From positions 342,515,700-342,579,699 of the forward strand of contig CM035838.1 of assembly GCA_020510985.1 (NCBI GenBank): 64,000 nucleotides of DNA, in the 5' to 3' direction. This stretch comes from Pholidichthys leucotaenia (Eukaryota). The translations under genes were made by a program, and so were the position numbers. Positions 7,422 to 52,119 of this stretch are shown piece by piece. The notes beneath the pieces were generated by a model. The model saw only the letters and a program-made list of their open reading frames with translations, searched no databases and was not told the origin of the DNA. Numbering within the stretch: position 1 is the stretch's first letter; each line of letters starts with the position of its first letter.

Positions 7422-7544
7422 TTAGGCCTGACCCGGGCCCGGCAGCGCCCCCAGCAGACCACTGGCTGTGGTGAAGAGGTTGATGGGAGATGAACCGTCC
7501 GTGATGAGGGTCGATTTGAGTCCCAGAGCCTGAAGCATCTTCAC
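7422..7544 (-). CDS. mvp: MVP last coding exon: [40 protein letters not shown]
   Basis: Acceptor gtcctcccctgcag|GTGAAG. The stop codon TAA is at 7422-7424. Matches human [32 protein letters not shown], with a shorter C-terminal tail. Confidence 0.85.
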
Positions 7545-7725
7545 CTGCAGGGGAGGACAAAAAAAGGGGCCAGACTTTAAACGACATATCACAGTCAATG
7601 GTTTAAACATCAAATTTATTAGGGGCACAGATAAAATGTAGTGGAAGACCATATTTGGCCCTCATTCATTGTCACTGATCCCTGTGCATTAAAGGGTTGT
7701 GGAGGAACTCTCAGCAGGACAGCAC

Positions 7726-7914
7726 CTGCATCTCAGGCCCGGCTCTGGCGATCTCCTTGAGCGTGTCGCTGCCCAGAGAGTCCATCATCTGCTTGAAGCG
7801 TTTACTCTCAATCTCCGCCAGGTTCTGCTGCTTCTCCACCTCCAGCTGGTCCATCTCCTTCTTGTAGTTCAGCTCCTGCTGACGAGCCTTCGCCAGCCGC
7901 TCCAGCTCTGCATC
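7726..7914 (-). CDS. mvp: MVP exon: DAELERLAKARQQELNYKKEMDQLEVEKQQNLAEIESKRFKQMMDSLGSDTLKEIARAGPEMQ
   Basis: Acceptor gtatgtag|GATGCA, donor ATGCAG|gtgctg. Matches the human coiled-coil segment [61 protein letters not shown]. Confidence 0.85.
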
Positions 7915-8162
7915 CTACATACACGACACATTGCAGAATAGGGGAAGAGTTCTATGAAGAACCCCTAGAAAAGATGTATGCTTACTGGAGGAGAAGCAAC
8001 ACAGAAGGATTGTGGGATCATGGGTCACTCAGACTGCTAGAAACTATAAAAATAAAATCTTGGACAGAGCTGTGTTGACATTTTGTATCCTTATCTTTAC
8101 AGAGGCTGTATTTCTGTCACTTAAAAAAAAAAAAAAAGGTCAGAGTGTGCATGTGAACGTAC

Positions 8163-8289
8163 TGCCTCAATCCTCTGAGCCTCGGTCTTCAGTTTGGCCT
8201 CATTGACTGCTGCCTCTCCCTGAATACGAGCTGCCTCCGCCCGAGACTGCGCCTCGGCCTTCGCTGCTCCAGTACTCTCCACCGCCGCA
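8163..8289 (-). CDS. mvp: MVP exon: (S)[42 protein letters not shown]
   Basis: Acceptor ctgtgtcag|T, donor GCA|gtacgt. Matches human [44 protein letters not shown]. Confidence 0.85.
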
Positions 8290-8879
8290 CTGACACAGAA
8301 TGAGGATCAATAAAAGTGTTCATATTCTGCATCTGTTACAAGACATTCTTGTAAACTTACATTAAATAAATCAAGCATTCTCCTATGACAAACTCCAAAC
8401 AATAAGACATCTAATAAATGATTGGATGATCAGTTCAGACTAAAAACCTTTAGTTACAATAACGTTAGACATCCTGGTTAAATGTTTTAACCAGACTCAT
8501 TCCAATCTGATGAACACTGAAGTCACCAAAATCCTTCTCTCTCTCTCTCCTTCCATTATATGGATGTAGAAAGGGGGAAGTATCGAACATGTCAACATTT
8601 CTTCAGTACACATATTTTCAATGAGGCAATTCGCATCAACATTTCACCTGAAGAAAGCCACATAATGAAATCAAAACATTTAAATCCATGAATAAAGTTG
8701 TTTGTAATAAAGTAGAATGAAGCAGGAATAAAGTACTGAACACATTAGAAAAAGTGACCCCCCCCCCCCCAAGGCATGGGGTAGAAAGGAAGTTCTACCT
8801 CCCATAAGGGGAAATTAATATCGGCAGATAGGTGGCTATAAAAAGGATTTTTTGTTACCAAGGTGTCACAAGAAACATC

Positions 8880-9480
8880 TCATGATGGGTAAAAGACGAG
8901 CTCTCCCAAAACCTACCAGGGAGTCAAAAGGGATAGTTTGAAGAGTAAACCAAGAGCCAAGGACAACCCTGAAAGATCTCCAGAAAGACTTTGAGGCGGC
9001 AAAATTGTGACAGAGAAAACAACAGGCAATGCACTCTACTATAATGGGCTACATCCATGCTCACCTCTCCAAGAGTCCATTATTAAAGAAAAGACATTGT
9101 TTAAAGTTTGCAAAGCAGCATTTGGACAAGCCTGTGAAATACTGAGTGCAGTGTTGTCGGATGAGATGAACATTCAACTTTTTGACTGTTTGAGAAAGAA
9201 CTGGTAGTGCACATTACCCAAAGAACACTAATCCTACAGTGAAGTTTGGAGGTAGAAGTATCATGGTGTGGGGCTGTTTCTCATCTCATGGTACTGGCAG
9301 ACTTCATGAATTAAAGGAACAATAAATGAACAATCTATTGCCATCCACCAAAATGATGAGACATTCCAGCAGAAACATGATTCCAAACACAAAGTAAGGG
9401 AAACTATTAGTTTGTAACAAAGAAAGTCAAGTTGTTAGACACAGCCCAGTCAATAAGCTGACTTATTAAATTTTCCTATT
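8880..9480 (+). mobile_element. Degenerate Tc1-like transposase fragment
   Basis: PTVKFGGRSIMVWGCFSSHGTGRLHEL and QKHDSKHK-like segments, with stops. Confidence 0.5.
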
Positions 9481-10274
9481 TAAAAAATTGTGACAAGAAC
9501 TAAAGATCAGGATTCACACGAGGGCCGTAAAGTTTTCAGGATTTCCAGGCAGTCTGTTTAGAAATGGCCAAACTCCTACCTGAGCACTGTGGGAGATTAG
9601 TTTCTTCATACAGGAATGTTTTGAAGCCATCTTTGCAAACAAAGCCTTCACTGCTGTGTTCAGCTATTTTTCCCCCGTTTCATTTCACTTCACATAACTT
9701 TATATATCACCTTAAATATTTTGATTTTTTTATATATGTCTGGATTTCTTAAGTTAATACTGAAGTCTGGTAAAAATTTCACATGGATAACTTCATAGGA
9801 AATATATGAGCTGGAAAAAATGTTGACGTGTTCAATACTTATTTTCCCCAGTGTATAAAAATGTCAAAACATTAAATTTATAACTGGAAATGGAGGCGAG
9901 AGGAAAGGGACCTTTAACAGAAAATAGCAAAAAAGCTTTTTTGGGGTTCACCTGCAATTTGATGATTAAAATGCCAATAAAATGTCTTCTCCTGTAACAG
10001 TAATACTGGAACCAAAATAGTCATGTGGTCTGTAGGCCAGTGGAAGAAGTGGCTGAAAATCGTTTTAATTTAAACATGTTCCTTTTCTTAGCAGCAATGC
10101 TGAGAAAGTCAAATTAAATTCTGTCTGATCTTAAAATTTTACAAATTACCATGAAAAAAAAAAAAAAAAAGAATTTCAACTGAAAGGTTGTGCGTTATAA
10201 AGCACTGCATGGTGACGGTCTTTCTGGCCTGCAGTTGTGGCTTTTTCTGTCTGAAATGTGCATCCCTCATTCAC

Positions 10275-10391
10275 CTGAGCGCCTCCAGCTCCAGCAGCTC
10301 CTTCCTGGCTCTCTCAGCCTCGGCCTGGTCGGTGATCTTCTGCCTCTCCAGCTTTCCCCGGGCCTCCTGCTCCAGACGTTCCGCCTCGTGG
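10275..10391 (-). CDS. mvp: MVP exon: (R)[38 protein letters not shown](S)
   Basis: Acceptor ctgtgcag|C, donor AG|gtgaat. Matches human [39 protein letters not shown]. Confidence 0.9.
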
Positions 10392-10472: not shown

Positions 10473-10684
10473 CGTGCGGCCGCCTCCTGGGAGTTAGTGG
10501 TGATCTCAATGGCCAGCTGGACGCTCTTCTGCAGGGCGTCCCGTGTGCGTTGGTCCACGGGCTCCACTGACTGGATGTCCACGCTACTGATCACCAGGTT
10601 GTTCTGGCTGAAGCGAAGACTCGGGCGGATCTGCAGCTTCTCGTCAAAGCCGAACACAGCTGAGCAGATGATCCTGTTTGAGTT
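10473..10684 (-). CDS. mvp: MVP exon: [70 protein letters not shown](R)
   Basis: Acceptor ttttttttttgtcctgctccag, donor CG|gtgcga. Matches human NSARIIRTAVFGF...[41 protein letters not shown]. Confidence 0.9.
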
Positions 10685-10886: not shown

Positions 10887-11031
10887 CTTGTGAAAATCAT
10901 CAAACTGAACGGATGCAACAGCTCCTCTGATCCGCGAGGCGATTGCTTTAGAGGCGTCGCCCACAAAGTCAGGGACGGAAAACAGAGCTGCTGCATCAGC
11001 AGGGTCTGTTCTAGACTTCACCTCAAAATGC
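10887..11031 (-). CDS. mvp: MVP exon: (W)[48 protein letters not shown]
   Basis: Acceptor cccctccatcccctcag, donor CACAAG|gtttga. Matches human [48 protein letters not shown]. Confidence 0.9.
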
Positions 11032-11530: not shown

Positions 11531-11683
11531 ATTTTATTTTTTTTATTTTTTCTCTCGGCGCCACACGAGTAGGCTGCCTTTTGCAACAGCGGCTCGATTC
11601 CGAGTCTTTTTCCCTTCCTCTCTCTTTTGATCCGTCTTTTTTTTTTCACCCCACTTATATCACGGACACACAGATCGTCCTAA

Positions 11684-13024
11684 ATGTCTCCTGAGCCGGT
11701 GGACGGAGCCACTGTTTATAGCAGGGTACGATACAGCAGAGAACAGCTGCTAGCATTCAACCGCCACCCGGTCCCATTGGAAAAACTCGACATACCGAGA
11801 GAACTGAGGCGAAAACGCCGCGGCTGCCGGGCTGGAGTAAGGCGGAGGACAAAAAATATAAGGTACAGACCCTCCCTTCCATCTGTTGTCATGGGAAAAG
11901 TACGGTCGATACTGGGAAAGTTAGATGAGCTAGCGGCTATCTCCCGTTATGATAGCACATACCGGGAGTGCTCTCTCCTTTTGTTTACTGAGACGTGGCT
12001 AACTGAACTAGCAGCAGATGCTAACATTGAGCTGGAGGGTTTTCACATGATACGAGCTGACCGAACACCAGAGAGTGGCAAGGCTAGGGGCGGTGGAGTG
12101 ATAATGTATGTTAACAACAACTGGTGCAGACCGGGACATATCACTGTTAAACAACGACACTGCAGCAAAGACATTGAGTTGCTAGCTGTTAGCATGAGGC
12201 CTACATATCTCCCGAGAGAACACTCACACGTGATCTGCATTGTTGTTTATGCAAATCTGACGGCGAACGCTGGGACAGCACGTGACGTCATCCATTCAGT
12301 AACCGGCAGGCTGCAGACAGAACACCCAGATGCTCTTCTCCTCATCTCAGGCGATTTCAACCATGTTTCACTGTCTCCCATTCTACCCACGTTCACCCAG
12401 TATGTCACATGCCACACTAGAGACAATAAAACACTGGATTTATTCTACGCAAACACTAAGGAGGCGTACACCTCATCACAACTCCCCCCACTCGGGAGAT
12501 CGGATCACAACTTGGTTCATCTCCGGCCGGTGTACAAACCCCTAGTGCACAGACAACCTCCGGCCATGCACACTGTGGAGTTATGGTCTGAGGAGACAAT
12601 GGACACCCTAAAGGGCTGTTTTGAAGCCACCGCCTGGAAGCAGCTCTGCGATCCACATGGTGAGGACATCGATGGCCTCATTCACACCTTCACGGGCTAC
12701 CTCAGCTTCTGTGTGGACAAATCCGTTCCCACCAAGACCATACGGCGTCACTCAAACAACAAACCCTGGATCAACCCTGAGATAAAAACACTTCTGAGAG
12801 AGAAGAAGAGGATCTTCAGGTCAGGGAACAGGGAGATGCTGAAGTCCGTACAGAGGGAGCTGAGGAGAAAGATCAGAGAAGGCAAGGACAGCTTCAGGAA
12901 GAAGATGGAGGACAAGCTGCAACAGAGCGACATCAGCGGGGTCTGGAGAAACCTCAAAACCATCTCGGGGCTCCAGAATACCTCCCCCAGGCCACAGGGG
13001 GCAGGGAGTGGGCGAACAACCTGA
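11684..13024 (+). CDS. LINE ORF: N-terminal region plus apurinic/apyrimidinic-type endonuclease (frameshifted from the RT)
   Basis: LLLFTETWL, ISGDFNH and GRSDHNLVHL endonuclease-like motifs. Confidence 0.75.
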   Translation: MSPEPVDGATVYSRVRYSREQLLAFNRHPVPLEKLDIPRELRRKRRGCRAGVRRRTKNIRYRPSLPSVVMGKVRSILGKLDELAAISRYDSTYRECSLLLFTETWLTELAADANIELEGFHMIRADRTPESGKARGGGVIMYVNNNWCRPGHITVKQRHCSKDIELLAVSMRPTYLPREHSHVICIVVYANLTANAGTARDVIHSVTGRLQTEHPDALLLISGDFNHVSLSPILPTFTQYVTCHTRDNKTLDLFYANTKEAYTSSQLPPLGRSDHNLVHLRPVYKPLVHRQPPAMHTVELWSEETMDTLKGCFEATAWKQLCDPHGEDIDGLIHTFTGYLSFCVDKSVPTKTIRRHSNNKPWINPEIKTLLREKKRIFRSGNREMLKSVQRELRRKIREGKDSFRKKMEDKLQQSDISGVWRNLKTISGLQNTSPRPQGAGSGRTT

Positions 13025-13185
13025 ATCTGTTTTTCAATAGATTTGACCAACCGCCCTCCCCCCTGACTGCACAACAACCACTGCTGCCTCTAAAGAAATC
13101 AAGTCCTGCTGCCCACTCCCCACTCCACCAACACCCCCCCACTCCCAACACACAGCCCCCCATCCTGACCCTGACCAGGACCCAG

Positions 13186-14589
13186 GTGAGGACGGAGCTG
13201 AGGAAGATCAAGGTGAGGAAGGCGCCGGGACCGGACGGCATCAGCGCAAAGCTCCTCAAGTCCTGTGCAGACCAGCTGTGTGGGATTGTGACGTATATCT
13301 TCAACATGAGCCTGAAACTGGGGAGGGTACCACAGCTGTGGAAAACATCTTGTGTGGTACCTGTACCAAAAACTTCCCACCCCAAAGACCTGAACAGCTA
13401 CAGACCGGTGGCCTTGACGTCCCACTTGATGAAGACCCTGGAGAGACTGCTCCTTGCTCACCTCCGCCCCCTGGTGGAACCAGCGATGGATCCACTCCAG
13501 TTCGCCTACCAGCATGGCATTGGGGTGGAGGATGCGGTGATCTTCCTCCTTCACCGTTCTCTGTCCCACCTGGAGAAGCCCGGGAATATGGTGAGGATCA
13601 TGTTCTTTGACTTCTCCAGTGCTTTCAACACCATCCAACCGATGATCCTGAAGGACAAGCTGCTGCGCGCAGGGGTGGACCAGCACCTGTCATCATGGAT
13701 CCTGGACTACCTCACGAACCGGCCTCAGTTTGTGAGAACCCGGGACTGTGTGTCCAACACGATCATCAGTAGCACGGGGGCCCCCCAGGGAACGGTGCTG
13801 GCTCCCTTCCTGTTCACTCTTTATACTGCGGACTTCTCACACAACACAACACACTGCCATCTACAGAAGTTCTCTGATGACTCTGCGATCGTTGGCCTCA
13901 TCTCCAATGGAGATGAAGCTGAGTACAGAGGGCTTATCCAGGACTTCGTGGACTGGTGCCATCGGAACTGCCTCCAGATCAACGTGAGGAAAACTAAGGA
14001 GCTGGTGGTGGACTGCCGCAGGCATGGGCAGCCCCTCACAGTACCAGTAAATATACAGGGAACAGACATCGAGATGGTGACATCCTATAAGTACCTGGGT
14101 ATTCATCTGAACAATAAACTAGACTGGTCACACAATACTGATGCACTCTACAAGAAGGGACAGCGCAGGCTGTTCCTGCTGAGGAGACTCAGGTCTTTTG
14201 GTGTACAAGGGGCGCTGCTGAAGTCATTCTATGACACGGTGGTGGCATCAGCCATCACTTTTGGAGTGGTCTGCTGGGGCAGTGGCATTACTGCAGCCGA
14301 TAGGAAGAGACTGAACAAACTGATTAAGAAAGCTAGCTCTGTCCTGGGGCAGCGCCTTGATCCGATGGAGGAGATAGGAGAGAGAAGGACGGTGGCTAAA
14401 CTGTCATCTCTGCTGGAGTCCGAGTTCCACCCTATGCAGGACATACTGGATGCACTGAGGAGCTCATTTAGCAGCAGACTACATCATCCCAGGTGCACAA
14501 CCGAGAGGTTTCGTAGGTCCTTCCTACCAACGGCTGTCAGACTGTACAACCTAAGCAGGGCTGCTCGCAGAGATAGCAAAAAGACGTAA
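13186..14589 (+). CDS. LINE reverse transcriptase
   Basis: FFDFSSAFNTIQP, FSDDSAIVGL (FADD-like) and a C-terminal ...SFLPTAVRLYN. Confidence 0.85.
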   Translation: MRTELRKIKVRKAPGPDGISAKLLKSCADQLCGIVTYIFNMSLKLGRVPQLWKTSCVVPVPKTSHPKDLNSYRPVALTSHLMKTLERLLLAHLRPLVEPAMDPLQFAYQHGIGVEDAVIFLLHRSLSHLEKPGNMVRIMFFDFSSAFNTIQPMILKDKLLRAGVDQHLSSWILDYLTNRPQFVRTRDCVSNTIISSTGAPQGTVLAPFLFTLYTADFSHNTTHCHLQKFSDDSAIVGLISNGDEAEYRGLIQDFVDWCHRNCLQINVRKTKELVVDCRRHGQPLTVPVNIQGTDIEMVTSYKYLGIHLNNKLDWSHNTDALYKKGQRRLFLLRRLRSFGVQGALLKSFYDTVVASAITFGVVCWGSGITAADRKRLNKLIKKASSVLGQRLDPMEEIGERRTVAKLSSLLESEFHPMQDILDALRSSFSSRLHHPRCTTERFRRSFLPTAVRLYNLSRAARRDSKKT

Positions 14590-14699
14590 CAAACTAATAG
14601 TTTTTTGAATGCAAAAGATGCAATAGACTTACACAATGGTCCCCTCCGGCATACAACTAGGAACATACCGGTCGCTATGGAGGGTGAGAATATGTATGG

Positions 14700-15060
14700 G
14701 CACATAATCATACCATGTAGGATAACTAAGTAGACGGTTATGCTGTTTCATTCCATCTAGCAACAATGCTCTGCACTGTGTGTGTTTATATATTTACATA
14801 TTTATTCCATCTAGCTACAATGCTCAGCACTGGGTGTGTTTATATATTTATATATCTACATATTATTCCATCTAGCTACATTGCTCCGCACTGTGTGTGT
14901 TTATATACTTGCATATTTATTCCACCTAGCTGCAATGCTCCGTACTGTGGGTGTTTATATATTTACATATTTATTCCATCTAGCTACAATGCTCTGCACT
15001 GTGTGTTCATATATTCATATATTTATTCCATCCAGCTACAATGCTCTGCACTGTGTGTCT
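14700..15060 (+). repeat. 56-bp tandem satellite (about 6 units: ttccatctagctacaatgctc.gcactgtgtgtgtttatatatttacatatttat) inside the LINE 3'UTR, followed by (gt)n and (ta)n
   Basis: Direct visual periodicity. There are 3 units in LINE copy B (47700-47860). Confidence 0.8.
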
Positions 15061-15247
15061 GTGTGTGTGTGTATATATATATATTTTATAGTAATATGTA
15101 CATATGTATATTAGCTGCTCTTGCTTGCTTGTTTTTTTTCTTGCCTTCTGATTGTTGCTCTGAGTGTTGCTATCCCTGTGCTGTTGCAATCCTGGAATTT
15201 CCCCGTTGTGGGACTAATAAAGGCTTATCTTATCTTATCTTATCTTA

Positions 15248-15271: not shown

Positions 15272-15308
<37 letters not shown>

Positions 15309-15830
15309 GTGCAGAGCATTGTAGCTGGATGGAATAAATATATGAATATATGAACACACAGTGCAGAGCATTGTAGCTAGATGGAATAAATATGTAAATA
15401 TATAAACACCCACAGTACGGAGCATTGCAGCTAGGTGGAATAAATATGCAAGTATATAAACACACACAGTGCGGAGCAATGTAGCTAGATGGAATAATAT
15501 GTAGATATATAAAAACACAGTGCGGAGCATTGTAGCTAGATGGAATAAATATATAGATATATAAATATAAACACACCCAGTGCAGAGCATTGTAGCTAGA
15601 TGGAATAAATATGTAAATATATAAACACACACAGTGCAGAGCATTGTTGCTAGGTGGGATGAAACAGCATAACCGTCTACTTAGTTATCCTACATGGTAT
15701 GATTATGTGCCCATACATATTCTCACCCTCCATAGCGACCGGTATGTTCCTAGTTGTATGCCGGAGAGGACCATTGTGTAAGTCTATTGCATCTTTTGCA
15801 TTCAAAAAAAAAAAAAAAAAAAACTATTAG
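15248..15830 (-). mobile_element. Inverted LINE 3'UTR fragment (stop-proximal part with the 56-bp satellite; lacks the terminal 135 bp)
   Basis: Reverse complement of 14590-15110. Together with 14590-15110 it forms a palindrome with arms of about 520 bp. Confidence 0.8.
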
Positions 15831-17682
15831 CTGTGGTTTATCACATCTTTGGAAAGCTGAGCTTAATGTCTGTAGCCACACCCAGGCCTGATTTCTGCCA
15901 CACCTGTTCTCAATCACGAAATCACTTAAATAGGACCTGCCTGACAAAGTGAAGTACACCAAAAGATCCTCAAAAGCTAGACATCATGCTGTGATCCAAA
16001 GAAATTCAGGAACAAATGAGAAAAAGTAATTGAGATCTATCAGTCTGGAAAAGGTTGTAAAGCCATTTCTAAAGCTTTAGGACTCCAGCGAACCACAGTG
16101 AGAGCCATTATCCACAAATGGCAAAAACATGGAACAGTGGTGAACCTCCCCAGGACTGGCTGGCTGGCCAAAATTACCCCAAGAATGCAGCAACGACTCA
16201 TCCAAGAGGTCACAAAAGACCCCACAACAACATCCAAAGAACTGCAGGCCTCACTTGCCTCAGTTAAGGTCAGCGTTCATGACTCCACCATAAGAAAGAG
16301 ACTGGGCAAAAATAGTCTGCATGGCAGAGTTCCAAGACAAAAACCACTGTTGAGCAAAAAGAACATAAAAGCTTGTCCCAGTTTTGCCAGAAAAAAATCC
16401 TGACGATCCCCAAGACTTTTGGGAAAATACTCTGTGGACTGACGAGACAAAAGTTGAACTTTTTGGAAGGTGTGTGTCCCATTACATCCGGCATAAAAGT
16501 AACAGCATTTTGGAAAAGGAACATCATACAAATAGTAAAATATGGTGGTGGTGGTAGTGTCATGGTCCGGGGCTGTTTTGCTGCTTCAGGGACCTGGAAG
16601 ACTTGCTGTGGTAAATGGAACCATGAATTCCACTGTCTACCAAAAATTCTTGAAGGAGAATGTCCAGCCATCTGTTCGTGACCTCAAGCTGAAGCGCACT
16701 TGGGTTCTGCAGCAGGACAATGATCCAAAACACACCAGCAAGTCCACCTCTGAATGGCTTAAGAAAAACAAAATGAAGACTTTGGAGTGGCCTAGTCAAA
16801 GTCCTGACCTGAATCTGATTGAGATGCTGTGGCATGACTTTAAAAAGGCACTTCATGCTCAAAAACCCTCCAATGTGGCTGAAATACAACAATTATGCAA
16901 AGATGAGTGGGCCAAAATTCCTCCACAGCGCTGTAAAAGACGCAGTGCCAATTAACGTAAACACTTGATTGCAGTTGTTGCTGCTAAGGGTGGCCCAGCC
17001 AGTTATTAGGTTTAGAGGGCAATCACTTTTTAACACAGGGCCATTTAGGTTTGGATTTTTTCCCTTAATAATAAACACCTTCATTTAAAAACTGCATTTT
17101 TGTGTTTACTTGTGTTATCTTTGTCTAATATTTAAATTTGTTTGATGATCTGAAATATTTAAGTGTGACAAACTTACAAAAAAATGAGAAATCAGGAAGG
17201 GGGCAAACACTTTTTCCCGCCACTGTATATTTTCATCAAGAGAAGTGAAAAAGGCATCTAGAAGCTTTTTTTAATGTGCCATGTTCCTTAAAAATGGTGG
17301 AGTCTTTAAATCAAAGACTATATACCTACATTACTGTGCAAAAGTCTTGAACCACCCCTCATTTTTTAATTACTGCCAGGAAAATGGGAAATAAATGCTG
17401 ATGTTTGCTAAAACACACAAAATACAGCATTTAGGGGAGAAACCTTTTGTACAATTCAAACAAACCTTCTAGTCAATATTTATGATTACCCCTTTGATTC
17501 TTCAGCACAGTCTGAACTCTTATTCAGCCTTCTTGTAACTTCTTCAAATGTTAAATTTTATCGATTTTTTTTTAAATAAATATTTTACAAAATAAATGAG
17601 CTGACTCCCCCCACCCCCCACTGTTGTGCAAAGAACAAAGTCCAACAACCTGTCTTTAGTACCCGACTCAGTGCTCGCTTAC

Positions 17683-17880
17683 CAGTTGTAGGAGAGCTGC
17701 AGCTGCAGGCGGGCGTGGTCAGCCGTCTCAATGGTGATGATGTCAGTGAAAAAGTCTGGTCCCAACAGGAGGCAGACAGACTTGTTGACATTAGCCCTCT
17801 TGGGTTTGTCCCCAGACAGTGACAGCACGGTGAACTGCTCATCAGGTCCCAGCATCACCATCTCGGGTCCAAACACCACC
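17683..17880 (-). CDS. mvp: MVP exon: (R)[65 protein letters not shown](W)
   Basis: Acceptor cttgactgcag, donor TG|gtaagc. Matches human [66 protein letters not shown]. Confidence 0.9.
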
Positions 17881-17983: not shown

Positions 17984-18219
17984 CTAGCCTTCTTCTCTCT
18001 GTAGTCATACACCTGGACGGCAGCATTGTGGGGGACCCTGTAGGAGATCACCATGGTCTTGTTTCTTGCCTCTACGTCTTGTGACCTGTTACGATCCGAG
18101 CGGTCAGCCAGAGGGTCGATGCGGGCTGACAGCAGGGCCTCAACTTTAGGAGGGAGCTCCTTCTCCCACAGCTCCTCGTCTTGAGTCAGCATGTAGGTGT
18201 GTCCGATCACTGCACGCAC
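17984..18219 (-). CDS. mvp: MVP exon: [78 protein letters not shown](R)
   Basis: Acceptor cctccag|GTGCGT, donor AG|gtggga. Matches human [30 protein letters not shown]...[24 protein letters not shown]. Confidence 0.9.
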
Positions 18220-20014: not shown

Positions 20015-20391
20015 GCAGGGCAGCACAGTGGCGCAGTGGTTAGCACTGTGTCAGCACAGCAAGGTCATGGGTTCAATCCCACCTCCAGACCATCGGTGAC
20101 CCTTCTGTGTGGAGTTTGCATGTTCTCCCCATGTCTGCGTGGGTTTACTCCGGATACTCCAGTTTCCTCCCACAGGCCAAAGACATGCAGGTGAGGTTAA
20201 TTGTCATCAGCTGGGGATTCTAAATTGTCCTTAGGTATGACTGTGAGAGTGAATGGTTGTCTGTCTCTGTGTTGGCTCTGCGATGGACTGGAGATCTGTC
20301 CAGGGTGTACCCTGCCTCTTGTCCAAAAGATGCTGGGATAAGCTCCAGCCCCCGCGACCCGAAGAGGATTAAACAGAAGAAGACGAATGGA
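20015..20391 (+). mobile_element. tRNA-derived SINE with 7-bp TSD TGAATAT
   Basis: tRNA-like head ggcagcacagtggcgcagtggttagcac...gggttcaatccc. The body is shared with the copies at 38908-39232 (minus strand), 43099-43483 and 44383-44500. TGAATAT flanks both ends (20008-20014 and 20392-20398). Confidence 0.75.
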
Positions 20392-20682
20392 TGAATATTC
20401 ACCCTTTTATTTTTCAAGTAGTCACAGCTCTGACAGCATTGTCTCCAGCTTGTTCTGAGCTCTTAAATTAGAAGCACTCAATATCTTAAATCATTTAGAT
20501 TCAATTCATACCAATTCTCAGTGGTCTGTCTTGTAGCTTTCATCACCATTCTAAATAAAAAGGTATCCCTCTGTGACATTTTGTTTTCAAGTCCAGATCA
20601 CAATTACTGAATGTTTTTGGGTTTTGTTTTTTTTTTTTTTTTTAAAAACTTAAAGACCTCCATCAGTTCCTGAAACTCCTAC

Positions 20683-20901
20683 CTTTCCTGTTTTGATGTC
20701 CCTGACGTAGATGCCCTCGTTCTCGTCCAGTGGAATTGCATGACGCTTCACCAGCACCTCCACTTGGGCAGGCGGCACATACTCAATAGGGCCTCGCAGC
20801 ATCCAGCGGTCTCCAGGGCGACGGAGAATTCCACCCCTCCGAGAGCGCTTGGCTCTCTGGCTGGACTCCTCGGCAGCCTCCTCTTCTTCCTCTTCCTCTT
20901 G
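20683..20901 (-). CDS. mvp: MVP exon: [73 protein letters not shown]
   Basis: Acceptor preceded by a long pyrimidine tract (ccctctctctctcccgttctctctgccag), donor AAG|gtagga. Matches human ...[42 protein letters not shown]. Confidence 0.85.
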
Positions 20902-35275: not shown

Positions 35276-35289
35276 AGAGTAAATATTGA

Positions 35290-36376: not shown

Positions 36377-36380
<4 letters not shown>

Positions 36381-36416
<36 letters not shown>
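36381..36416. repeat. (CA)n microsatellite
   Basis: Visible run. Confidence 0.95.
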
Positions 36417-36421
<5 letters not shown>

Positions 36422-38907
36422 TCTATCTTTCATTTATGCCGGGGGAGGCTGTCCGTGCAGACCAGAGATCCACAGCTTTAAAGCTCATTGACCAGATGCA
36501 GTAATGATTTTACCTCTAAAGATGTATAAAATGTTCCAACACTGGCTGTAGTGTTAGATTTCCTCACTGTGTTTGTGGTTTTACAGAGTCCCCCCCTCCC
36601 CCCACGACGGGGTGCTTTTGAAGCAGGTGGATGTTTTTCAACACAAACCCAGCACTTCATGCACGTGGTCAGGACTGAGACATGGGGAGATGGAGGAAGG
36701 AACAGTATTGGAAACCTCGCGGGTGGGTGTTTTGTTTTTGTTTTTTTTTTTAAATCACACACTCCGTCTGCTGATGTGTTCTGTTAACACTCCTGTAAAC
36801 ACGGAAGTGAACACAGTGCAGCGATGCATTTGATTGGTTAGACTGAGCATTTCAGCGCCAGTCAAGAGATAAAATTGGTTGGTGAAATTGGCGGAAGTTG
36901 ACGAGGATGGCCAAAATTGCGGTGATTGGACAAAGTTGCAAAGTCGCACAATAGTTGTGCTGATTGGCTGATTTTGCGTGAATTGATGTGATCACAACAT
37001 CGCAAAATTCTGGAGGAACTGCATAAAGTACTGGTAAATGTATTCAGTACTTCTTCTTCCGGCTCCGAGAGAGAGCAGTCGCATTTTTCTGCCCTCCTCC
37101 TGTCTGCCTTCCTGACCTATTCCCAGCTTTGCAATGTTGCGTTTTTGTTTGTGTTTAGTCGCTCTTCTTCTGCTGAATCTTAATCTAAACGGAATTTATG
37201 GATTTGGAAGCGGCTTAAATGTGCTATTGTCACTATTTTTCAACAAGAACCGGGCCAAGGGGGAGCCCATGAATTGGAACCTGCATGATTTGATTGGAGA
37301 TGCAGAAGACATCTATTGGCTATGACACGGGATTCTATTTTTGGCCCTGGAGTTTCCTGATGTTTCAGAAATTGAGGAAGGTGGAGAGCTGTTCAAAATG
37401 CGGATCCAGGCAAGCTCCTTCACCAATTCGACCAGTTGGGGAGTGCACGAGGCGGCATGGTGAACTGAATGGAGATTCAGATGGTGGAATACATCTTGAA
37501 GTCGCCAGTGCTCTCCAGAGAATGTTAAAGTTTAAGCCTGCACATGGAAATTATGAAAGCACAGAATTGCACGGGTGAGGAAAAATCTATTCTCTGAGTG
37601 CACTGTGCAGATTTGACCTTGTCTTTGGTGCCCTTTATTTACATTCCTCCTGATGAAGATAAGCGGAAGGAGCGGCTCTGCCTGCTAACCCAAACAATCG
37701 ACACAATTGTTGTTGTTTCAGCAGATGAATGCTCAAGGATAGTGCACCATGTGACAATTTACCATCTGCAAGCAAGAGCGAGAGACTCTGGACTGCTTAG
37801 ATCACATGACTTTAACATCTATCCACTGCCAGGAGGCGCCCTCTGCTGTTCACTAGCAATTGACACACCTACACTACTGCATTCAACATTACACTACTGA
37901 TACAATTACTGATATATATTCACAATACACTGACTCTCTCAACTACTGCTTTGTCATTGTGTGATCTATTGTCTGCTAATTGTGCATTTGAGAGTTTTTT
38001 TCTTGTAATCAAAATTTTGGTCATAAAATGAGCTCTATTTTGATCAACAATGCTTTTTTCTCTCTCCTATTGCGTTTTTCCCTATCCTTCCCCCCCTCCC
38101 CCCTCTTTACCCCCCCCATATGACAGGTGCCTCGTCATGGCTGCTGCGTCATTGGGATGCGCCTTTCGTGCGCGCCCAAAGTCAAGTCAAATTCCTCGTA
38201 TGTTTACTTGTTTACTTGTAAATGTGCTTGGCAATAAATCTGATTCTGATTCTACTAGCAATTTACTTTATTAATATTCAAGCAGACAGAAAAAAGCAAA
38301 ATATCCAGATCTGAAATCCGAAAATCAACACAAAAATGAAAGCACTAAAGGTGCTACTGCCTCGGTGCTTGTGGCAGTCCACGCATGCAGGCTTGTGAAA
38401 TGTTTGTCATTTGTTTACAAGGGGAAGGGCACTGTTTTGCCTCCTCCATGTGCACGGGAGAAAACAGCCAGCATCACATACATATGTCAGTCACGTCCCA
38501 TTGACACGCCTATGATGCGGATTTCACCGTTACAACACACGAGCTGCACCCTCATTGGTCAACATGTCTCCTGGAAGGCGGTCTGTTCAATCCCATACAA
38601 TATGGCGTCGGGACATTAAACATTCTCTTATATCTTCAAAACTAAACAGCGAAACATGTTTCTGAAAACAACTGATGTGATAAATAAATGACGTAGTTGC
38701 CAAATGTGTATTTACTTTTCATTAACAACCACTATTTTAAGAAGTTCAGCATGTGATCCAACGGTTGACAGGAAGTTATATATGGTGCTGTATAAAAGTC
38801 ACACTGCCATCTGCTGGCCCGGCACAGTTCTTCTTGAAAGTTTTGATCCACAAGAACCTTTAAGGTGAACGAATCATGACATTTTTTGACAAAGCCTCAT
38901 CTTGAAA

Positions 38908-39232
38908 TTATCTATCCATCTTCTTCCGCTTAATTCTTTTCGGGTCGTGGGGGGGCTGGAGCCTATCCCAGCATCTTTGTGCAAGAGGCAGGGTACACCC
39001 TGGACAGATCGCCAGTCCATCGCAGGGCCAACACAGAGAGACAGACAACCATTCACTCTCACAGTCATACCTAAGGACAATTTAGAATCCCCAGTTTGAT
39101 GCCAATTAACCTAACTTGCATGCTTCTGGCATGTGGGAGGAAACCGGAGAAATCCCGGCGTAAACCCACGCAGACACGGGGAGAACATGCAAACTCCACA
39201 CAGATCACTGTTGGTCGGGGGCTGGGATCTTG
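38908..39232 (-). mobile_element. tRNA-derived SINE (same family as the one at 20015)
   Basis: Reverse complement of the SINE consensus (ccatccatcttcttccgcttaat...cccagcatctttg...gggtacaccctggaca). Confidence 0.75.
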
Positions 39233-39772
39233 AAATTACTTTGAAATTAAAAGTCCAGAAAACATGGCGATGCATTGATAAAAGCCTTTAATTCCACCTG
39301 ACTTTCACTGGGCGAGCTGAAAACCTGGTAACAGACAGATCGATACGCACACAGATACATGGACACACTACCATATACCTACTTTGCTCATGCGTACCAA
39401 GGCATAACAAACTATTTTCTTTCAGGCATGCACTCTTTTCGGATGAACATTTAATATAAGTCAACAACATTTGAGCAACAGGTTTGACATCACATTAACA
39501 GAATGATATAATTTAGTTCATGCTTGAAAAGGGCTTCTTAATGGTCCAAGTTTGTTCATTCGGAGAAGTGGCACCAAGTTTTAAATAAAGTAAAATTAGA
39601 TGGAAATGGGCTTAAAGCCACTGCAGCTGAAGGCATTACCAAAAAAATACCTTTGTTGTGTTTTCACATATAGGTCAGAGAATTATTCAACATCTTATGT
39701 AGATTAGAAATGCTACTTAGCTTTAAGCCTTTTTTTTTTGCTCTGAACAAGACAAATAAGGGGTGGAGTTAC

Positions 39773-39867
39773 CTTGTCAGTCAGGATGAACGCGTTTACA
39801 ATGTCGATGACCTCTTCATGGGCGCCTGGAAGATACGCTCCCACCTTTCTGACCAGCCACTCCTCAC
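39773..39867 (-). CDS. mvp: MVP exon: (G)[31 protein letters not shown]
   Basis: Acceptor gtgtggtacag|GTGAGGAG, donor GACAAG|gtaact. Matches human [32 protein letters not shown]. About 10.2 kb of TE-rich intron lies upstream of this exon. Confidence 0.85.
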
Positions 39868-40751
39868 CTGTACCACACACACACAGGACAGATGAAACAC
39901 AGCTCATGATAGGAAGGGGGAAATGACTGGGATTTAGTCCTTTAAAGTCATTTAAATTAGCAGAGGGCTATTAATTTGTTTGAGGTTTTTGTTTTACATT
40001 TATTGAAGCACTGAAGCTACAAAAAATAAGCTTATAAAACAAAACATAAGATCATTTATCTATTATCACATTTTTAAATGTACATACTGTAATACAGGGT
40101 ATCAACATAAGACACTTAAGAGAAGCTGTTACTTTAATATAAAAAACAGAACCATTGTGACAGTAGTTTAGCATTTCATATTTGTATTGAAATATTCTAA
40201 AACAAGGTTTTATTCATTTTGATCACTTAAATAAAATACTTAAACTAAAAACTTTGCAGATATGAATTGAGTTACTTGGACAAGGTAAACTGGGTCATGC
40301 CTTCTTTTCACTTTGATAATTTACCATTGTATATGATTTATAAAATTCTGCGTGGCTGCGTTTACAATGTCGGTACCACTCAGCGCAATGTGACACCCTC
40401 TTGGCAAGGTGTCCTGAATGAATCGACAACAAAGCATTGCCAAGATGGCCGCAGTGCATCTTGTTGTTGCTGTTGTATGATGGGCGTTGGCTCAAGTTGA
40501 GCTCGTCTATCCTTTTATAGGTCTTGTTTTTCATCCTGCTGGATGTCATGCAGCACTCCTCACCAGCACAAAGCTGGTAGGGGAGCTGTTTTAGACGACT
40601 ACCCATCCGTGTGGCAGGTTGCACTGGGTTACACTGCCAGCAGTAGCAGTCTATCTAGACCCTGACCGGACACTGGTTATATGGTTTATAACATTTACAT
40701 TAAACTACACAAAACCTTGTACCTGCACATAACCCATAATCTACAGAAACG

Positions 40752-42346
<1,595 letters not shown>

Positions 42347-42934
42347 CAATTTTGTCCATGTGTGCTGGTCACAACTTTCTGCACACGGAGTACACAGCTT
42401 CAATTTCCACCAAACCCAACAAAAACAGTTTATTATAGTTCTACTTAAAGCTGCAATCATATTTCATGGTTCATGAAGCTCAGATGCCTGATCACCAGCG
42501 CACACATTTACTACACTAGTCAACAGCCGTATGTCCATTGCAAGATCTTGGAACAGACTTTACGGGAACCGATGGTGCGTGTCTCCACCATCAAACCATC
42601 CCCTGTAATTGGAAGTTTTCAGGAACTCGTAGGGGCCAACAGTAGCAGACTCAGACATGGGCCATGTGGGCAAGTGCCCGGGGCACAGTTCTTTTGAGGC
42701 CACCATGAGAATCAAAAGAATAAAAATAATAAGAGACTGATAAATATGTGTGCCGAGTGTGTATTTGTGGCAAATGGGCGCCCTCTACAGGTGGGATGCC
42801 GGCGCCCTCTGGTTGCGGATGGCAGACTCCATAGATCAAACTCCAGTATGGCCCATTCAAAGCGCAGCAAAGAAAATTAACAAAAAAAAAAAAAAATGTT
42901 AAAAGTAGTTTTTTCTTAGATTATGCAGCAGTTT

Positions 42935-43085: not shown

Positions 43086-43098
43086 CTGTTGTAGTCAG

Positions 43099-43483
43099 GG
43101 CGGTGCGGTGGCAGAGTGGTTAGCACTGCAGCAGCACAGCAACTCACCCTTAGCCGGGGGATCCCGGGTTCGATAACAGCCCCTGACCAACAATGATTTG
43201 TGTGGAGTTTGCATGTTCTCCCCATGTCTGCGTGGGTTTACTCCAGGATTTCCTCCCACATCCCAAAAACATGCAAGTTGGGTTAATTGGCATCAACCGG
43301 GGATTCTAAATTGTCCTTAGATATGAATGTGAGAGTGAATGGTCTTCTGTCTCTCTGTTCTGTGTTGGCCCTGTGATGGACTGGCGATCAGGGTGTACCC
43401 TGCCTCTCGCCCAAAGATGCTGGGATAGGCTCCAGCACCCCTGCGACCTGAAAAGGATTAAGCGGAAGAAGATGGATAGATGG
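43099..43483 (+). mobile_element. tRNA-derived SINE with 12-bp TSD TGTTGTAGTCAG
   Basis: The head gcggtgcggtggcagagtggttagcactgcag...gggttcgat and the body are shared with the other copies. The identical 12-mer lies at 43087-43098 and 43484-43495. Confidence 0.8.
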
Positions 43484-44382: not shown

Positions 44383-44500
44383 ATGGACTGGCGATCTGTC
44401 CAGGGTGTACCCAGCCTCTCGCCCAAAGATGCTGGGATAGGCTCCAACCCCCCGCCACCCGAAAAGGATTAAGCGGAAGAAGATGGATGGATGGATGGTC
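44383..44500 (+). mobile_element. 5'-truncated SINE fragment (3' part only)
   Basis: ggactggcgatctgtccagggtgtacccagcctctcgcccaaagatgctgggataggctcc...ggattaagcggaagaagatggatgg. Confidence 0.65.
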
Positions 44501-44965: not shown

Positions 44966-45159
44966 CACACATATATATTTTCCATGTCAGCCATCATTCC
45001 TTCGGCACGTGTCTGCCACCTTGTAAACTGTCCGATAAATAGAGATTAGTACAAATTCTCAGTATAGCCGGGGGACGTCAGTAAGTTGTCAAGTGCAGTT
45101 GCTGTGCCACTGGGGGCGCGTGACCCATCCATTTAATCTGGGCGGTTACACACTTTATA

Positions 45160-47988
45160 CATCACGGACACACAGATCGCCCCAAATGTCTCCCGAGCCG
45201 GTGGACGGAGCCACTGTTTACAGCAGGAGACGGTACAGCAGGGAACAGCTGCTTGCACTTGATCGCCACTCGGTGCTAACGGAAAAACTCGACGTACCGG
45301 GAGAAATAAGGCGAAAACGACGTGATTGTCGGGCTGGTGTTAGACGGTGGACAAGGAATATAAGGTACAGACCCACCCTCCCATCCGTTGTTATGGGGAA
45401 TGTACGATCTACGTATATTGGGAAAGGTAGATGAGCTAGCGGCTATCTCCCGCTACGATAGCATATACCGGGAGTGCTCCCTCCTTTTGTTTACCGAGAC
45501 GTGGCTAACTGAACTAGTAGCAGATGCTAACATTGAGCTGGAGGGTTTCCACGCTGGCTGTTTTGAAACCACCGCCTGGGAGCAGCTCTGCGATCCACAT
45601 GGTGAGGACATCGATGGCCTCACTCACACCATCACGGACTACATCAGCTTCTGTGTGGACAACACCGTTCCCACCAAGACCATACAGTGTTGCTCAAACA
45701 ACAAACCCTGGATCAACCCTGTGATAAAAACACTTCTGAGAGAGAAGAAGAGGATCTTCAGGTCGGGGAGCAGGGAGATGCTGAAGTCCGTACAGAGGGA
45801 GCTGAGGAGAAAGATCAGAGAAGGCAAGGACAGCTTCAGGAAGAAGATGGAGGACAAGCTGCAACAGAGCGACATCAGCGGGGTCTGGAGAAACCTTAAA
45901 ACCATCTCTGGGCTCCAGAATACCTCCCCCCAGGCCACGGGGGGCAGGGAGTGGGCGAACAATCTGAATCTGTTTTTTAATAGGTTTGACCAACCGCCCT
46001 CCCCCCCCCGACTGCACAACAACCACTGCTGCCTCTGAAGACATCAAGTCCTGCTGCCCACTCCCCACTCCACCATCACCCCCCCACTCCCAACACACAG
46101 CCCCCCAACCTGACCGTCACTAAGACCCAGGTGAGGACAGAGCTGAGGAAGATCAAGGCGAGGAAGGCGTTGGGACCGGACGGCATCAGTGCAAAGCTCC
46201 TCATGTCCTGTGCAGACACATGTGTCCTGTGTGGGATTGTGGAGTACATCTTCAACCTGAGCCTGAAGCTGGGGAGGGTACCACAGTTGTGGAAAACACC
46301 TTGTGTGGTACCTGTACCAAAGACTTCCCACCCCAAAGATCTGAACAGCTACAGACCAGTGGCCCTGACGTCCCACATGATGAAGACCCTGGAGAGACTG
46401 CTCCTTGCTCACCTCCGCCCCCTGGTGGGACCAGCAATGGATCCACTCCAGTTCGCCTACCAGCATGGTATTGGGGTGGAGGATGCGGTCATCTTCCTCC
46501 TTCACCGTTCTCTGTCCCACCTGGAGAAGCCCGGGAATGCAGTGAGGATCATGTTCTTTGACTTCTCCAGTGCTTTCAACACCATCCAACCGATGATCCT
46601 GAAGGACAAGCTGCTGTGCGCAGAGGGTGGACCAGCACCTGTCATCATGGATCCTGGACTACCTCACAAACCGGCCACAGTTTGTGAGAACCCGGGACTG
46701 TGTGTCCGACACAATTATCGGTAGCACGGGGGCCCCCCAGGGAACGGTTTTGGCTCCCTTCCTGTTCACCCTTTATACTGCGGACTTCTCACACAACACA
46801 ACACACTGCCATCTACAGAAGTTCTCTGACGACTCTGCGATCGTTGGCCTCATCTCCAACGGAGATGAAGCTGAGTACAGAGGGCTTATCCAGGACTTTG
46901 TGGACTGGTGCCATCGAAACTGCCTCCAGATCAACGCGAGGAAAACTAAGGAGCTGGTGGTGGACTGCCGCAGGCAAGGACAGCCCCTCACAGCACCAGT
47001 AAACATCCAGGGAACAGACTTTGAGATGGTGACATCCTACAAGTACCTGGGTGTTCATCTGAACAATAAACTAGACTGGTCACACAATACTGACGCACTC
47101 TACAAGAAGGGACAGCGCAGGCTGTTCCTACTGAGGAGACTCAGGTCTTTTGGTGTACAAGGGGTGCTGCTGAAGACATTCTACGACACGGTGGTGGCAT
47201 CAGCCATCACTTTTGGAGTGGTCTGCTGGGGCAGTGGCATTACAGCAGCCGATAGGAAGAGACTGAACAAACTGATCAAGAAAGCTAGCTCTGTCCTGGG
47301 GCAGCGCCTTGACCCAGTGGAGGAGATGCGAGAGAGAAGGATGGTGGCTAAACTGTCATCTCTGCTGGAGTCCGAGTTCCACCCTATGCAGGACACACTG
47401 AATGCACTGAGGAGCTCATTTAGCAGCAGACTACATCATCCTAGGTGCACAACCGAGAGGTTTTGCAGGTCCTCCCTACCAACGGCTGTCAGACTGTATA
47501 ACCTAAGCAGGGCTGCTCGCAGAGATAGCAAAAAGGCGTGACAACCTAATAGTACTGAATGCAAAAGGCGCAATAGACTTACACAATGGTCCCCTCCGGT
47601 ATACAACTAGGAAAATACCGGTAGCTACGGAGGGTGACAATATGTATGGGTACATAATCATACCATGTAGGATAACTAAGTAGACAGTTATGCTGTTTCA
47701 TTCCATCTAGCTACAATGCTCTGCACTGTGTGCGTTTATATATTCATATATTTATTCCATCTAGCTACAATGCTCCGCACTGTGTTTATATATCTATATA
47801 TTTATTCCATCTAGCTACAATGCTCCGCACCGTGTGTCTATATATTTATGTTTATATGTACATATGTATACTCGCTGCTCTTGTTTTTTTCTTGCCTTCT
47901 GATTGTTGCTCTGAGTGTTGCTATCCCTGTGCTGTTGCAATCCTGGAATTTCCCCATTGTGGGACTAATAAAGGCTTATCTTATCTTA
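45160..47988 (+). mobile_element. LINE copy B (same family as 11653-15247) with an internal deletion in the endonuclease region and a frameshifted RT
   Basis: Same 5' end (tatacatcacggacacacagatcgcc). ORF fragments at 45093-45434, 45388-46038, 46131-46724 and 46627-47541 are 85-90% identical to copy A. The 3'UTR has only 3 satellite units and ends in cttatcttatctta. Confidence 0.8.
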
Positions 47989-50112: not shown

Positions 50113-50244
50113 CTGTGACTCTGTTGACTCCACTTCGGTCCTTGCCCTCTTTGCGAGCCCTCAGTCTGATGGCCTGGTTCTCCCTGATCACCGTGGCCTT
50201 GATCGTCTCCAGCACGGCCACCTCCTTCCTCGGGATGTAGGTCC
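50113..50244 (-). CDS. mvp: MVP exon: (G)[43 protein letters not shown](G)
   Basis: Acceptor tgtttgtttcag|GGACCTAC, donor ACAG|gtacca. Matches human [32 protein letters not shown]. Confidence 0.85.
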
Positions 50245-50372
50245 CTGAAACAAACATTTTTATTGGATATTTACAAAAATTTAAAGATCCAAAATCAAGG
50301 GGGGACTCTGCCATTTAACAACCAGTCCACCCTCTTTGAAAGCAACTATATTTGAGCCCAGATTGGACATGC

Positions 50373-50496
50373 CTGGTCCTTCAAACAGCCACTCGTCTCC
50401 AGCTATCCTCTTCTCTCCTCCTTCCTCCTCAAAGTCTAGCAGAGCCTGCAGACGAAGAGCGGTGTCTGGATACACAATCTGCAGCGGGGTCACGTC
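50373..50496 (-). CDS. mvp: MVP exon: [41 protein letters not shown](G)
   Basis: Acceptor tttttcttgcag. The 3' end, GGA CCA G|gcatgt, is the only position that keeps the frame into the next exon, which implies a GC donor. Confidence 0.8.
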
Positions 50497-51163
50497 CTGC
50501 AAGAAAAATACAGTACATCAGCTCAGGAAACGGAAACTACCACTTCAGTATAAAGAGTTGCTTTTAATATTAACCTGTTGAACTCTGTTCAACTTCCCTA
50601 AAAATAACATGCCCAAAGTAAATCAAAAGCTGTTCTTCAACCCTTTGCAGCATCTTCATGGGGTTAGTCTCATTTAAAAGAAAACACTTTGAATTTTTGG
50701 CAAAACAGTCATAATATCTCTAAGTGCTCCTGCCACTGAATAACAAGAAAGTTCACCTGGGTGTTTTTTTAGATACAAATGCTTGCAAATAACATACAGC
50801 TGTCAGATACTGGCTGGAAAACACAACAGAAATGTAGAACCAAGTGTTTTCAAGCTCAGGTCAAAATTTTGTAAAAATACCACAAAAAATGAATATATTA
50901 CACAGCTTTTTTCTCAAGTTGTAACAAGGCTGTGTCTGTACTGGGAGACCGGAAATACAGCTTTTTTTTTTTTTTTTCAGTGCGCACTGAGACGCACTAA
51001 GATGCAGAGACGTGACCGCCCGCGGAATTCACAGAGTTCAAGGGGTTAATGTTTTTTTTCTTGCAGGCCTCATAATAATATAATGATACTAATATAATTT
51101 AGGCATTATAATGGAAATCTGATTACAAATTAAAAAAAAAAAAAAAAAAAAACTCCTTCTGAC

Positions 51164-51359
51164 CTGCTGAATCTCCTCTCCAGGGTACAAAGGGAACGGG
51201 TCCTGAGCCAGGCGGATCTCCAGGTCAGCGTGGCGAAGCTTGGCCTGACCAGACTGATCAAAGAGGACCTGACCGTTGTCATCACGGGCCACGGGGTTGG
51301 AGATCACACAATAGTGACGTGGCGGCACCATGATCATCCGCACGGGAGCGAAGAGAACT
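51164..51359 (-). CDS. mvp: MVP exon: [65 protein letters not shown]
   Basis: Acceptor ttttatttcccag, donor CAG|gtcaga. Colinear with the first MVP repeat domain (human: VLFAPMRMVTVPPRHYC...[13 protein letters not shown]). Confidence 0.85.
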
Positions 51360-51447
51360 CTGGGAAATAAAATAGATCAACAAAAACATTTGTGTTTATA
51401 ATCTACACCGCCCACATGTCAAAGGCCATCCTGCTGACCCAACTGAC

Positions 51448-51611
51448 CTTTCGTTGTCCTGGCGGATGTAGGTGAGTGGTCCAATCTCCACACGGGCGAT
51501 GTTGGTGTTCTGATCCAGGACATGGATGTAATTGTGAGGTGGGATGCGGATGATCGAAGTCTCCACCTGTAGCTCCATTTCCGGCCCGCTCTTTGCTCCC
51601 TTCTTCGACAT
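51448..51611 (-). CDS. mvp: Major vault protein, first coding exon: [54 protein letters not shown](R)
   Basis: Minus-strand translation matches the conserved MVP N-terminus. The ATG at 51609-51611 is preceded by an acceptor-like tttgcag (exon start about 51626), so a non-coding exon 1 probably lies upstream. The donor is AG|gtcagt. Confidence 0.85.
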
Positions 51612-52119
51612 GGTTGTAGTTAAATACTGCAAAGAGTAACAGAGGGTTTTTATTTAAATAATTTGATCATTAAAGCCTGATTTACAGTTTTGCAATCAAT
51701 CATTCAAACAAGAGATTAAGATTTTCTGAATCATTACAAGATATTTTTTCAGCCATTTGTACAGTTGGGAGGGTTTCATGTCAGCTTTGTTTTCTGCATG
51801 GTGTTGGCATGTAATGTGAGAAGACATCTACTGTATATTTACAAACCTATTTATCAGCAAGGTGCCAGCAGAAAAACCAGACCGTTGAGTAGCTCATTCC
51901 AGCCTGAAGAACACACCCCGAGTTTACCTTGAGCCTTTCCTTCTCCCTACATTTACAGAGATGTGTATGAAGCAGAGACCTGCTGACACCGGAAATTACA
52001 CTTACTCACCTTGTGACTTTTGACCCTGAGCACAACTTGGATGCGAGTAGATCCATTTATGGCTATAAAACCAAATTATGCAAAGGCAATGGTACCCCCC
52101 CCCCCCCCCCCAACACTAA

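Follow-up and report, generated by a model that had tools for sequence, protein, structure and literature searches.

The major vault protein (MVP) is the product of a well-studied, highly conserved gene and associates with vault RNA, TEP1 and PARP4 in the vault particle. A second process relevant to this report is the exonisation of transposable elements (TEs), in which intronic TE sequence is recruited as an alternative cassette exon and which has been described for Alu and others in mammals. The human and rat MVPs of solved vaults (e.g. PDB 11dr, 4V60, 4HL8 and 7PKR) have the same Pfam domains as the protein described here, which is collinear with human MVP and is encoded in a 64,000-nt window (the whole stretch of DNA analysed; contig CM035838.1, forward-strand positions 342,515,700 to 342,579,699) of Pholidichthys leucotaenia, the convict blenny. 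The species has a chromosome-level assembly, GCA_020510985.1 (listed in bioRxiv 10.1101/2024.07.29.605683), and has been placed as sister to the cichlids (PMC13622550). With a probability of about 97%, we take the locus to be the single-copy orthologous mvp of P. leucotaenia, intact and under purifying selection, with 16 coding exons predicted to yield an 879-amino-acid (aa) MVP and a length of ~44 kb brought about by lineage-specific intron DNA.

Joined on the minus strand, the 16 coding exons gave a coding sequence (CDS) of 2,640 nt with a single terminal TAA. Exon cores were anchored on stop-to-stop open stretches, and AG acceptors and GT donors were picked to keep the frame; in the resulting explicit splice model the 879-codon frame contained no internal stop, phase was correct at 15 of 15 junctions, and 14 of the 15 introns were GT-AG, the remaining one (intron 3) being GC-AG. 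The ATG (51611-51609) lies in coding exon 1 (51448-51626, coding part 51611-51448), where 15 nt of 5' untranslated region (UTR) follow an AG acceptor. Exons 2 (51164-51359, 196 nt), 3 (50373-50496, 124 nt) and 4 (50113-50244, 132 nt) lie close to it, followed by exons 5 (39773-39867, 95 nt), 6 (28591-28827, 237 nt), 7 (23047-23172, 126 nt), 8 (20683-20901, 219 nt), 9 (17984-18219, 236 nt) and 10 (17683-17880, 198 nt). The shoulder domain falls on exon 11 (10887-11031, 145 nt); exon 12 (10473-10684, 212 nt) precedes exon 13 (10275-10391, 117 nt), in which the cap-helix region begins, and the series ends with exons 14 (8163-8289, 127 nt), 15 (7726-7914, 189 nt) and 16 (7422-7544, 123 nt including the TAA at 7424-7422). 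Exon placement followed the splice model and the comparison with other teleosts given below, together with Pfam for exon 11 and the human MVP alignment for exon 13. An AATAAA 50 nt 3' of the stop (7366-7371, minus strand) is a likely poly(A) signal, with the poly(A) site itself expected ~20 nt beyond 7366.

A first-pass annotation, made from the letters of the stretch, had proposed a complete minus-strand mvp with 16 coding exons and about 879 aa, colinear with vertebrate MVP, and this proposal was borne out. The six peptides that it quoted were all located on the minus strand at the implied positions, none of its exons contained an in-frame stop, and its end coordinates were exact, 7422 being the last base of the TAA and 51626 the first base after the AG acceptor that stands 15 nt before the ATG. 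Because the 5'UTR starts directly after that acceptor (51626/51627), the ATG exon is probably preceded by a non-coding first exon; the mvp of the cichlid Archocentrus centrarchus has an acceptor at an equal distance from its ATG. A strong donor (AAG/GTGAGT) at ~52011 on the minus strand, ~400 nt upstream, would end a candidate for this non-coding exon 1. We infer from the sequence that mvp is transcribed and spliced: a minus-strand transcript would be joined from the 16 coding exons, probably with one more non-coding exon ahead, into the mRNA for the 879-aa MVP.

The model protein was identical at 879 of 879 residues to its top match in a large protein database, GenBank KAM9394046.1 (major vault protein isoform 2-T2, Pholidichthys leucotaenia). 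The gene is therefore real and was previously annotated, and the window, as judged by this identity, is the KAM9394046.1 locus. The next-best matches were cichlid MVPs (~91% identity), which fits the placement of Pholidichthys as the sister of cichlids. Two database records retrieved among such proteins carry doubtful labels: the name 'voltage-gated sodium channel type V alpha [Sarotherodon galilaeus]' is attached to a protein of 878 aa with 90% identity to Pholidichthys MVP (P0127), likely in error, and a tilapia-type MVP is filed in nr under Mustela putorius furo (P0138), probably through contamination.

Alignment to human MVP (PDB 11dr_A) was collinear and paired residues 16-874 with 3-853 (1298 bits, E = 0), a match far above chance level. 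Only one shoulder loop and the linker that follows exon 7 contained indels. The MVP repeat domains were recognised as Vault (PF01505), Vault_2 (PF17794), Vault_3 (PF17795) and Vault_4 (PF17796) with 200, 133.6, 120.9 and 79.4 bits, all above the curated Pfam cut-offs, and MVP_shoulder (PF11978) was matched over its whole profile (1-118) by residues 550-668 (172.7 bits); the cap-helix region and the start of the cap-ring (residues ~670-874 against human 650-853) aligned without gaps. The predicted product would thus have the standard MVP layout of N-terminal repeat domains, shoulder, cap-helix and cap-ring. It differs from human MVP (893 aa) in having 13 extra N-terminal residues, an acidic/basic linker after FYDADE that is ~21 residues longer, a shoulder-region loop that is ~10 residues shorter, and a shorter C-terminal tail. 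The linker stands at the start of exon 8 (20826-20901, minus strand; residues 359-384), where acidic residues give way to a basic patch, and a similar linker is present in the teleost consensus. Homology with the rat and human MVPs of the solved particles suggests that the shell of the vault ribonucleoprotein would consist of 78 copies of the protein. Against the CDS of A. centrarchus the Nei-Gojobori dN/dS, the ratio of nonsynonymous to synonymous substitution rates, was 0.090 (dN 0.0525, dS 0.583), and mvp is, by this estimate, under strong purifying selection, as a working gene should be.

We compared the locus with the mvp loci of A. centrarchus (L001), Melanotaenia boesemani (L002) and Seriola dumerili (L003), the last of these for exon presence, intron lengths and the intron-3 donor. 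All 16 coding exons were present in each of the three loci, with protein identities of ~89-91%. Exon lengths in Archocentrus and Melanotaenia equalled those of Pholidichthys except for exon 8, which differed by whole codons and therefore implies the same splice phases. The distance from ATG to stop was 44,190 bp in Pholidichthys and 8,894, 11,569 and 12,575 bp in Archocentrus, Melanotaenia and Seriola, respectively, and total intron length was 41,550 bp as against 6,254, 8,923 and 9,935 bp, i.e. four to seven times that of the relatives. The excess lay mostly in introns 4, 5, 6 and 10, which measured 5.4-10.9 kb here and 83-1,488 bp in the orthologs: intron 4 was 10,245 bp (422-687 bp in the three other fish), intron 5 10,945 bp (91-1,488 bp), intron 6 5,418 bp (85-135 bp) and intron 10 6,651 bp (83-357 bp). 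Introns 8 (2,463 bp; 71-408 bp elsewhere) and 13 (1,985 bp; 128-462 bp elsewhere) contributed a smaller share. Intron 7, at 2,145 bp, stands outside this expansion, being long in all four species (1,006-2,366 bp in the other three). The gene length of ~44 kb and the enlarged, TE-carrying introns of the first-pass annotation are both upheld; its count of four introns of 2.4-11 kb needs correction, since there are five (introns 4, 5, 6, 8 and 10) and two more of ~2 kb.

Two side observations may be added. A pyrimidine-rich tract of ~93 nt before the exon-8 acceptor (20902-20994, minus strand) is conserved with the cichlid (L001, 14333-14425); the BLASTN match spanning tract and exon 8 was 84% identical overall, and the remainder of intron 7 was not conserved. 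The tract may be a conserved splicing-regulatory element. In addition, the contig that carries the gene measures 492.9 Mb and the homologous cichlid and rainbowfish chromosomes 30-42 Mb, which suggests that the Pholidichthys genome is unusually large and repeat-rich, in line with the intron expansion.

The content of the introns was identified by self-BLAST, Pfam on long open reading frames (ORFs), tblastn searches with TE proteins encoded in the window itself, Tandem Repeats Finder (TRF) and alignment of short repeats. Mobile elements fill introns 4, 6 and 10, for which the repeat/TE share was at least 56%, 86% and 89%, respectively; the minimum share was 15.5% in intron 8, 10% in intron 13 and 8.5% in intron 5. 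That the large introns are filled with TEs is thus shown for introns 4, 6 and 10, the shares that could be assigned in introns 5 and 8 being small. On our reading, lineage-specific DNA has accumulated in a few introns, mainly 4, 5, 6 and 10, much of it as insertions of long terminal repeat (LTR) elements, long and short interspersed elements (LINEs and SINEs) and Tc1 elements.

Intron 10 holds a LINE copy at 11656-15237 on the plus strand, antisense to mvp, with a weak endonuclease match, a reverse transcriptase (RT) and a PF09004-like motif, and with 54-bp tandem arrays on its 3' side. A second copy of this LINE, 93.6% identical and frameshifted, lies in the same orientation in intron 4 (45158-47988). 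Tandem arrays of 50-54 bp stand 3' of both copies (14750-15058, 15300-15657 and 47700-47845), and the intron-10 array occurs twice in inverted arrangement (14601-15110 versus 15809-15246). Tc1/mariner elements are found in intron 10 (15826-17231, plus strand; HTH_Tnp_Tc3_2, HTH_SB and DDE_3) and in intron 4 (40743-42355, plus strand), the latter with terminal inverted repeats of ~210 bp (40743-40950 and 42145-42355). Together with a further Tc1 copy upstream of mvp (52937-54519), they show the paired helix-turn-helix and DDE domains of this group (HTH_Tnp_Tc3_2, HTH_SB, DDE_3), in copies that are frameshifted. By alignment of copies, tRNA-derived SINEs were recognised in intron 8 (20016-20393, plus strand), intron 4 (43096-43482 and 44383-44496) and intron 5 (30635-30867 and 38910-39228). 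Their 5' heads show the Pol III A and B box motifs TGGCGCAGTGG and GGTTCAATCC/GGTTCGAT, and the tRNA-like head is degenerate, as ARAGORN and Rfam call no tRNA there at their thresholds.

Intron 6 contains a full-length LTR retrotransposon (23700-28370) on the minus strand, sense to mvp, that is bounded by TG..CA and flanked by the target-site duplication CGTT (23696-23699 and 28371-28374). Its LTRs (23700-24047 and 28033-28370) differ by 4 mismatches in 338 aligned positions, PBS-like (primer binding site) and PPT-like (polypurine tract) sequences are present, and the coding regions follow the order gag (DUF7041)-protease-RT-RNaseH-integrase with frame breaks; Pfam matched DUF7041, RVT_1, RT_RNaseH and rve, with the aspartyl protease below cut-off. 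The element is an LTR retrotransposon for which Ty3/gypsy and BEL/Pao are the superfamily candidates. Two other members of the family lie outside the gene: a full-length element on the minus strand ~6 kb upstream of mvp (57853-62300) and a partial plus-strand copy cut by the window edge (1-2675). A clock of ~4.7e-9 substitutions per site per year was derived from the synonymous divergence of mvp and the Pholidichthys-cichlid split at 61.6 Ma (PMC13622550). On this clock the Kimura two-parameter distance (K2P) of 0.012 between the intron-6 LTRs corresponds to an age of ~1.3 million years (My), and that of 0.051 between the LTRs of the upstream element (15 mismatches in 307 positions) to ~5.4 My; both ages are rough because dS is high and LTR differences are few.

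Elements that recur in the window at 86-94% identity, as several do, could confuse assemblers, and the large introns might on that account be artefacts in which repeat-rich sequence was misjoined into the gene. We regard this as barely credible. No exon is missing, out of order or inverted, the 4-bp target-site duplication of the LTR element is clean and its ends are intact, the repeat copies have diverged by at least 6% and are thus separable by long reads, and the record is a chromosome-scale contig.

Four points weigh against the interpretation of the locus as an intact mvp enlarged by lineage-specific DNA. All 15 junctions are predicted ones; the donor of intron 3 is of the rarer GC type; ~91% of intron 5 (28828-39772, 10.9 kb) could be assigned to no repeat, TE protein or Pfam signal; and the public annotation holds a second isoform, so that the 879-aa protein is not necessarily the sole or main product.

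As regards intron 5, which is AT-rich (GC ~0.38), Pfam gave no match for its pooled ORFs on both strands, the repeat finder and TRF returned microsatellites, one 21-bp array and the two SINEs and nothing else, and translated and low-stringency nucleotide comparison with the remaining window added nothing further. A TE origin for most of the intron is nevertheless likely, because its 10.9 kb are missing from all three relatives. A hAT-like N-terminus spotted by eye at 33418-33633 was dropped for want of Pfam support. The array (35345-35527) is an AT-rich, satellite-like repeat with the 21-bp unit AAAAAGCTGCAAATTTACAAG that recurs just upstream of the ATG exon (52150-52470), and it is probably a non-autonomous element.

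The intron-3 donor, which the first-pass annotation had missed, reads CAG/gcatgt (50372-50367, minus strand) and belongs to the sole non-GT-AG intron of the gene. Archocentrus, Melanotaenia and Seriola all have GACCAG/gt at the same donor (3 of 3), and the GC of Pholidichthys is, on this comparison, the derived state, reached by a T>C change. A GT donor 4 nt further downstream was ruled out because its use would disrupt the frame, and there is no in-frame GT alternative. One could therefore ask whether the locus, intact as it looks, is a pseudogene that is decaying or has lost its function, with the weak GC donor and a sense LTR element carrying its own poly(A) signals interfering with expression. 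Such a view can point to the GC where three relatives have GT, to the multiplied intron length, and to AATAAA on the mvp-sense strand in both intron-6 LTRs (at 23760 and 28085, accompanied by TATATAA at 23822 and 28147). However, the 879-codon frame is open, the splice sites are all usable and dN/dS is low (0.09); the GC donor fits the GC-AG consensus at 5 of its 6 intronic positions; and the protein database gives no indication of a second mvp locus for the species, showing one cluster on one contig. The LTR insertion itself, at ~1.3 My, is too young to show decay either way. We consider decay of the locus highly improbable and retain the reading of a functional, single-copy mvp. It may be noted separately that the mvp pre-mRNA has to pass two potential premature poly(A) sites in the intron-6 LTRs.

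The second annotated isoform, KAM9394045.1 (P0241; isoform 1-T1), is 888 aa long and differs from the 879-aa protein solely by the residues PEYTSQLQA between exons 6 and 7; neither this isoform nor its cassette exon had been seen by the first-pass annotation. The nine residues correspond to an optional, in-frame 27-nt exon (26860-26886, minus strand) inside the intron-6 LTR element, between its protease and RT regions. A long pyrimidine tract and a CAG acceptor (...ttctattccctgtacag/) precede it and a /gtaagt donor follows. In the intron-6 copy, a copy-specific 21-bp deletion sets the pyrimidine tract beside the AG acceptor; in the upstream family member the donor motif is present and the compact acceptor absent. 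In a 35-row alignment that includes the two Pholidichthys isoforms, all 33 teleost MVPs from other species were free of an insertion at this position, which follows the residue equivalent to human K303, and K316 and G326 flank the site as invariant columns. For the 888-aa isoform, an AlphaFold2 model based on the 35 teleost sequences reached a mean pLDDT of 35.3 and a pTM of 0.24, presumably because all alignment rows are at least 86% identical; it was discarded and not used to place the insertion.

These features resemble known TE exonisation in that a short in-frame segment of a sense-oriented intronic retroelement with good splice signals is annotated as an alternative exon. They differ from Alu-type cases in that the exon derives from the interior (pol region) of an LTR retrotransposon that is very young, and in that it is known here from annotation and sequence. 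The proposal that a retrotransposon inserted ~1-2 My ago has already given mvp a 27-nt in-frame cassette exon, and with it a lineage-specific isoform with nine extra residues in a conserved repeat domain, is a tentative one, and we rate it as unlikely.

A stronger form of the idea would make the 888-aa isoform 1, with its LTR-derived exon, the main product and the 879-aa model a minor form. In its favour, the PEYTSQLQA of KAM9394045.1 falls precisely where exons 6 and 7 join, the segment 26886-26860 is in frame between a pyrimidine tract with CAG acceptor and a donor that is a perfect GTAAGT, and the deletion brings this tract next to the acceptor. The stronger form is opposed by the lack of the insertion in all 33 other-species sequences and the invariance of K316 and G326 around the site, by the age of the host element (only ~1.3 My), and by the fact that the nine residues break into a conserved repeat domain. 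Newly exonised TE fragments, moreover, are usually minor isoforms. We therefore think it distinctly unlikely that isoform 1 is the main product, and the 879-aa protein is kept as the primary model.

The rest of the window was consistent with the earlier statement that mvp is its only supportable cellular gene, with the limit that ORF-based scans could miss genes with short exons. All other long ORFs with a Pfam match were TE-derived (the scan left out several ORFs, mostly overlapping or antisense within TE spans), the remaining ORFs of the flanks had no Pfam match, and Rfam and tRNA (ARAGORN) scans of the whole window were empty. The Rfam scan thus returned neither a vault RNA nor any other Rfam family in the window; a vault RNA adjoining mvp is not expected. 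A counterpart of the TRIM-like gene that lies upstream in the cichlid was not found in the window. A LINE fragment lies at 63357-63998, and ORFs at 4.0-4.8 kb that looked Tc1-like had no Pfam support and are not claimed as such.

The gene is an ordinary housekeeping gene with an existing annotation, and the significance of the locus beyond its correct annotation is small. It offers a clean example of a compact teleost gene (~9-13 kb in related percomorphs) that has grown to ~44 kb through datable TE insertions. Only the candidate micro-exon from the retroelement is mildly unusual; it is the one testable curiosity of the locus, as a possible newborn TE-derived exon in a structural protein. If the isoform is expressed and incorporated, it would represent a very young, datable TE exonisation that alters a highly conserved structural protein.

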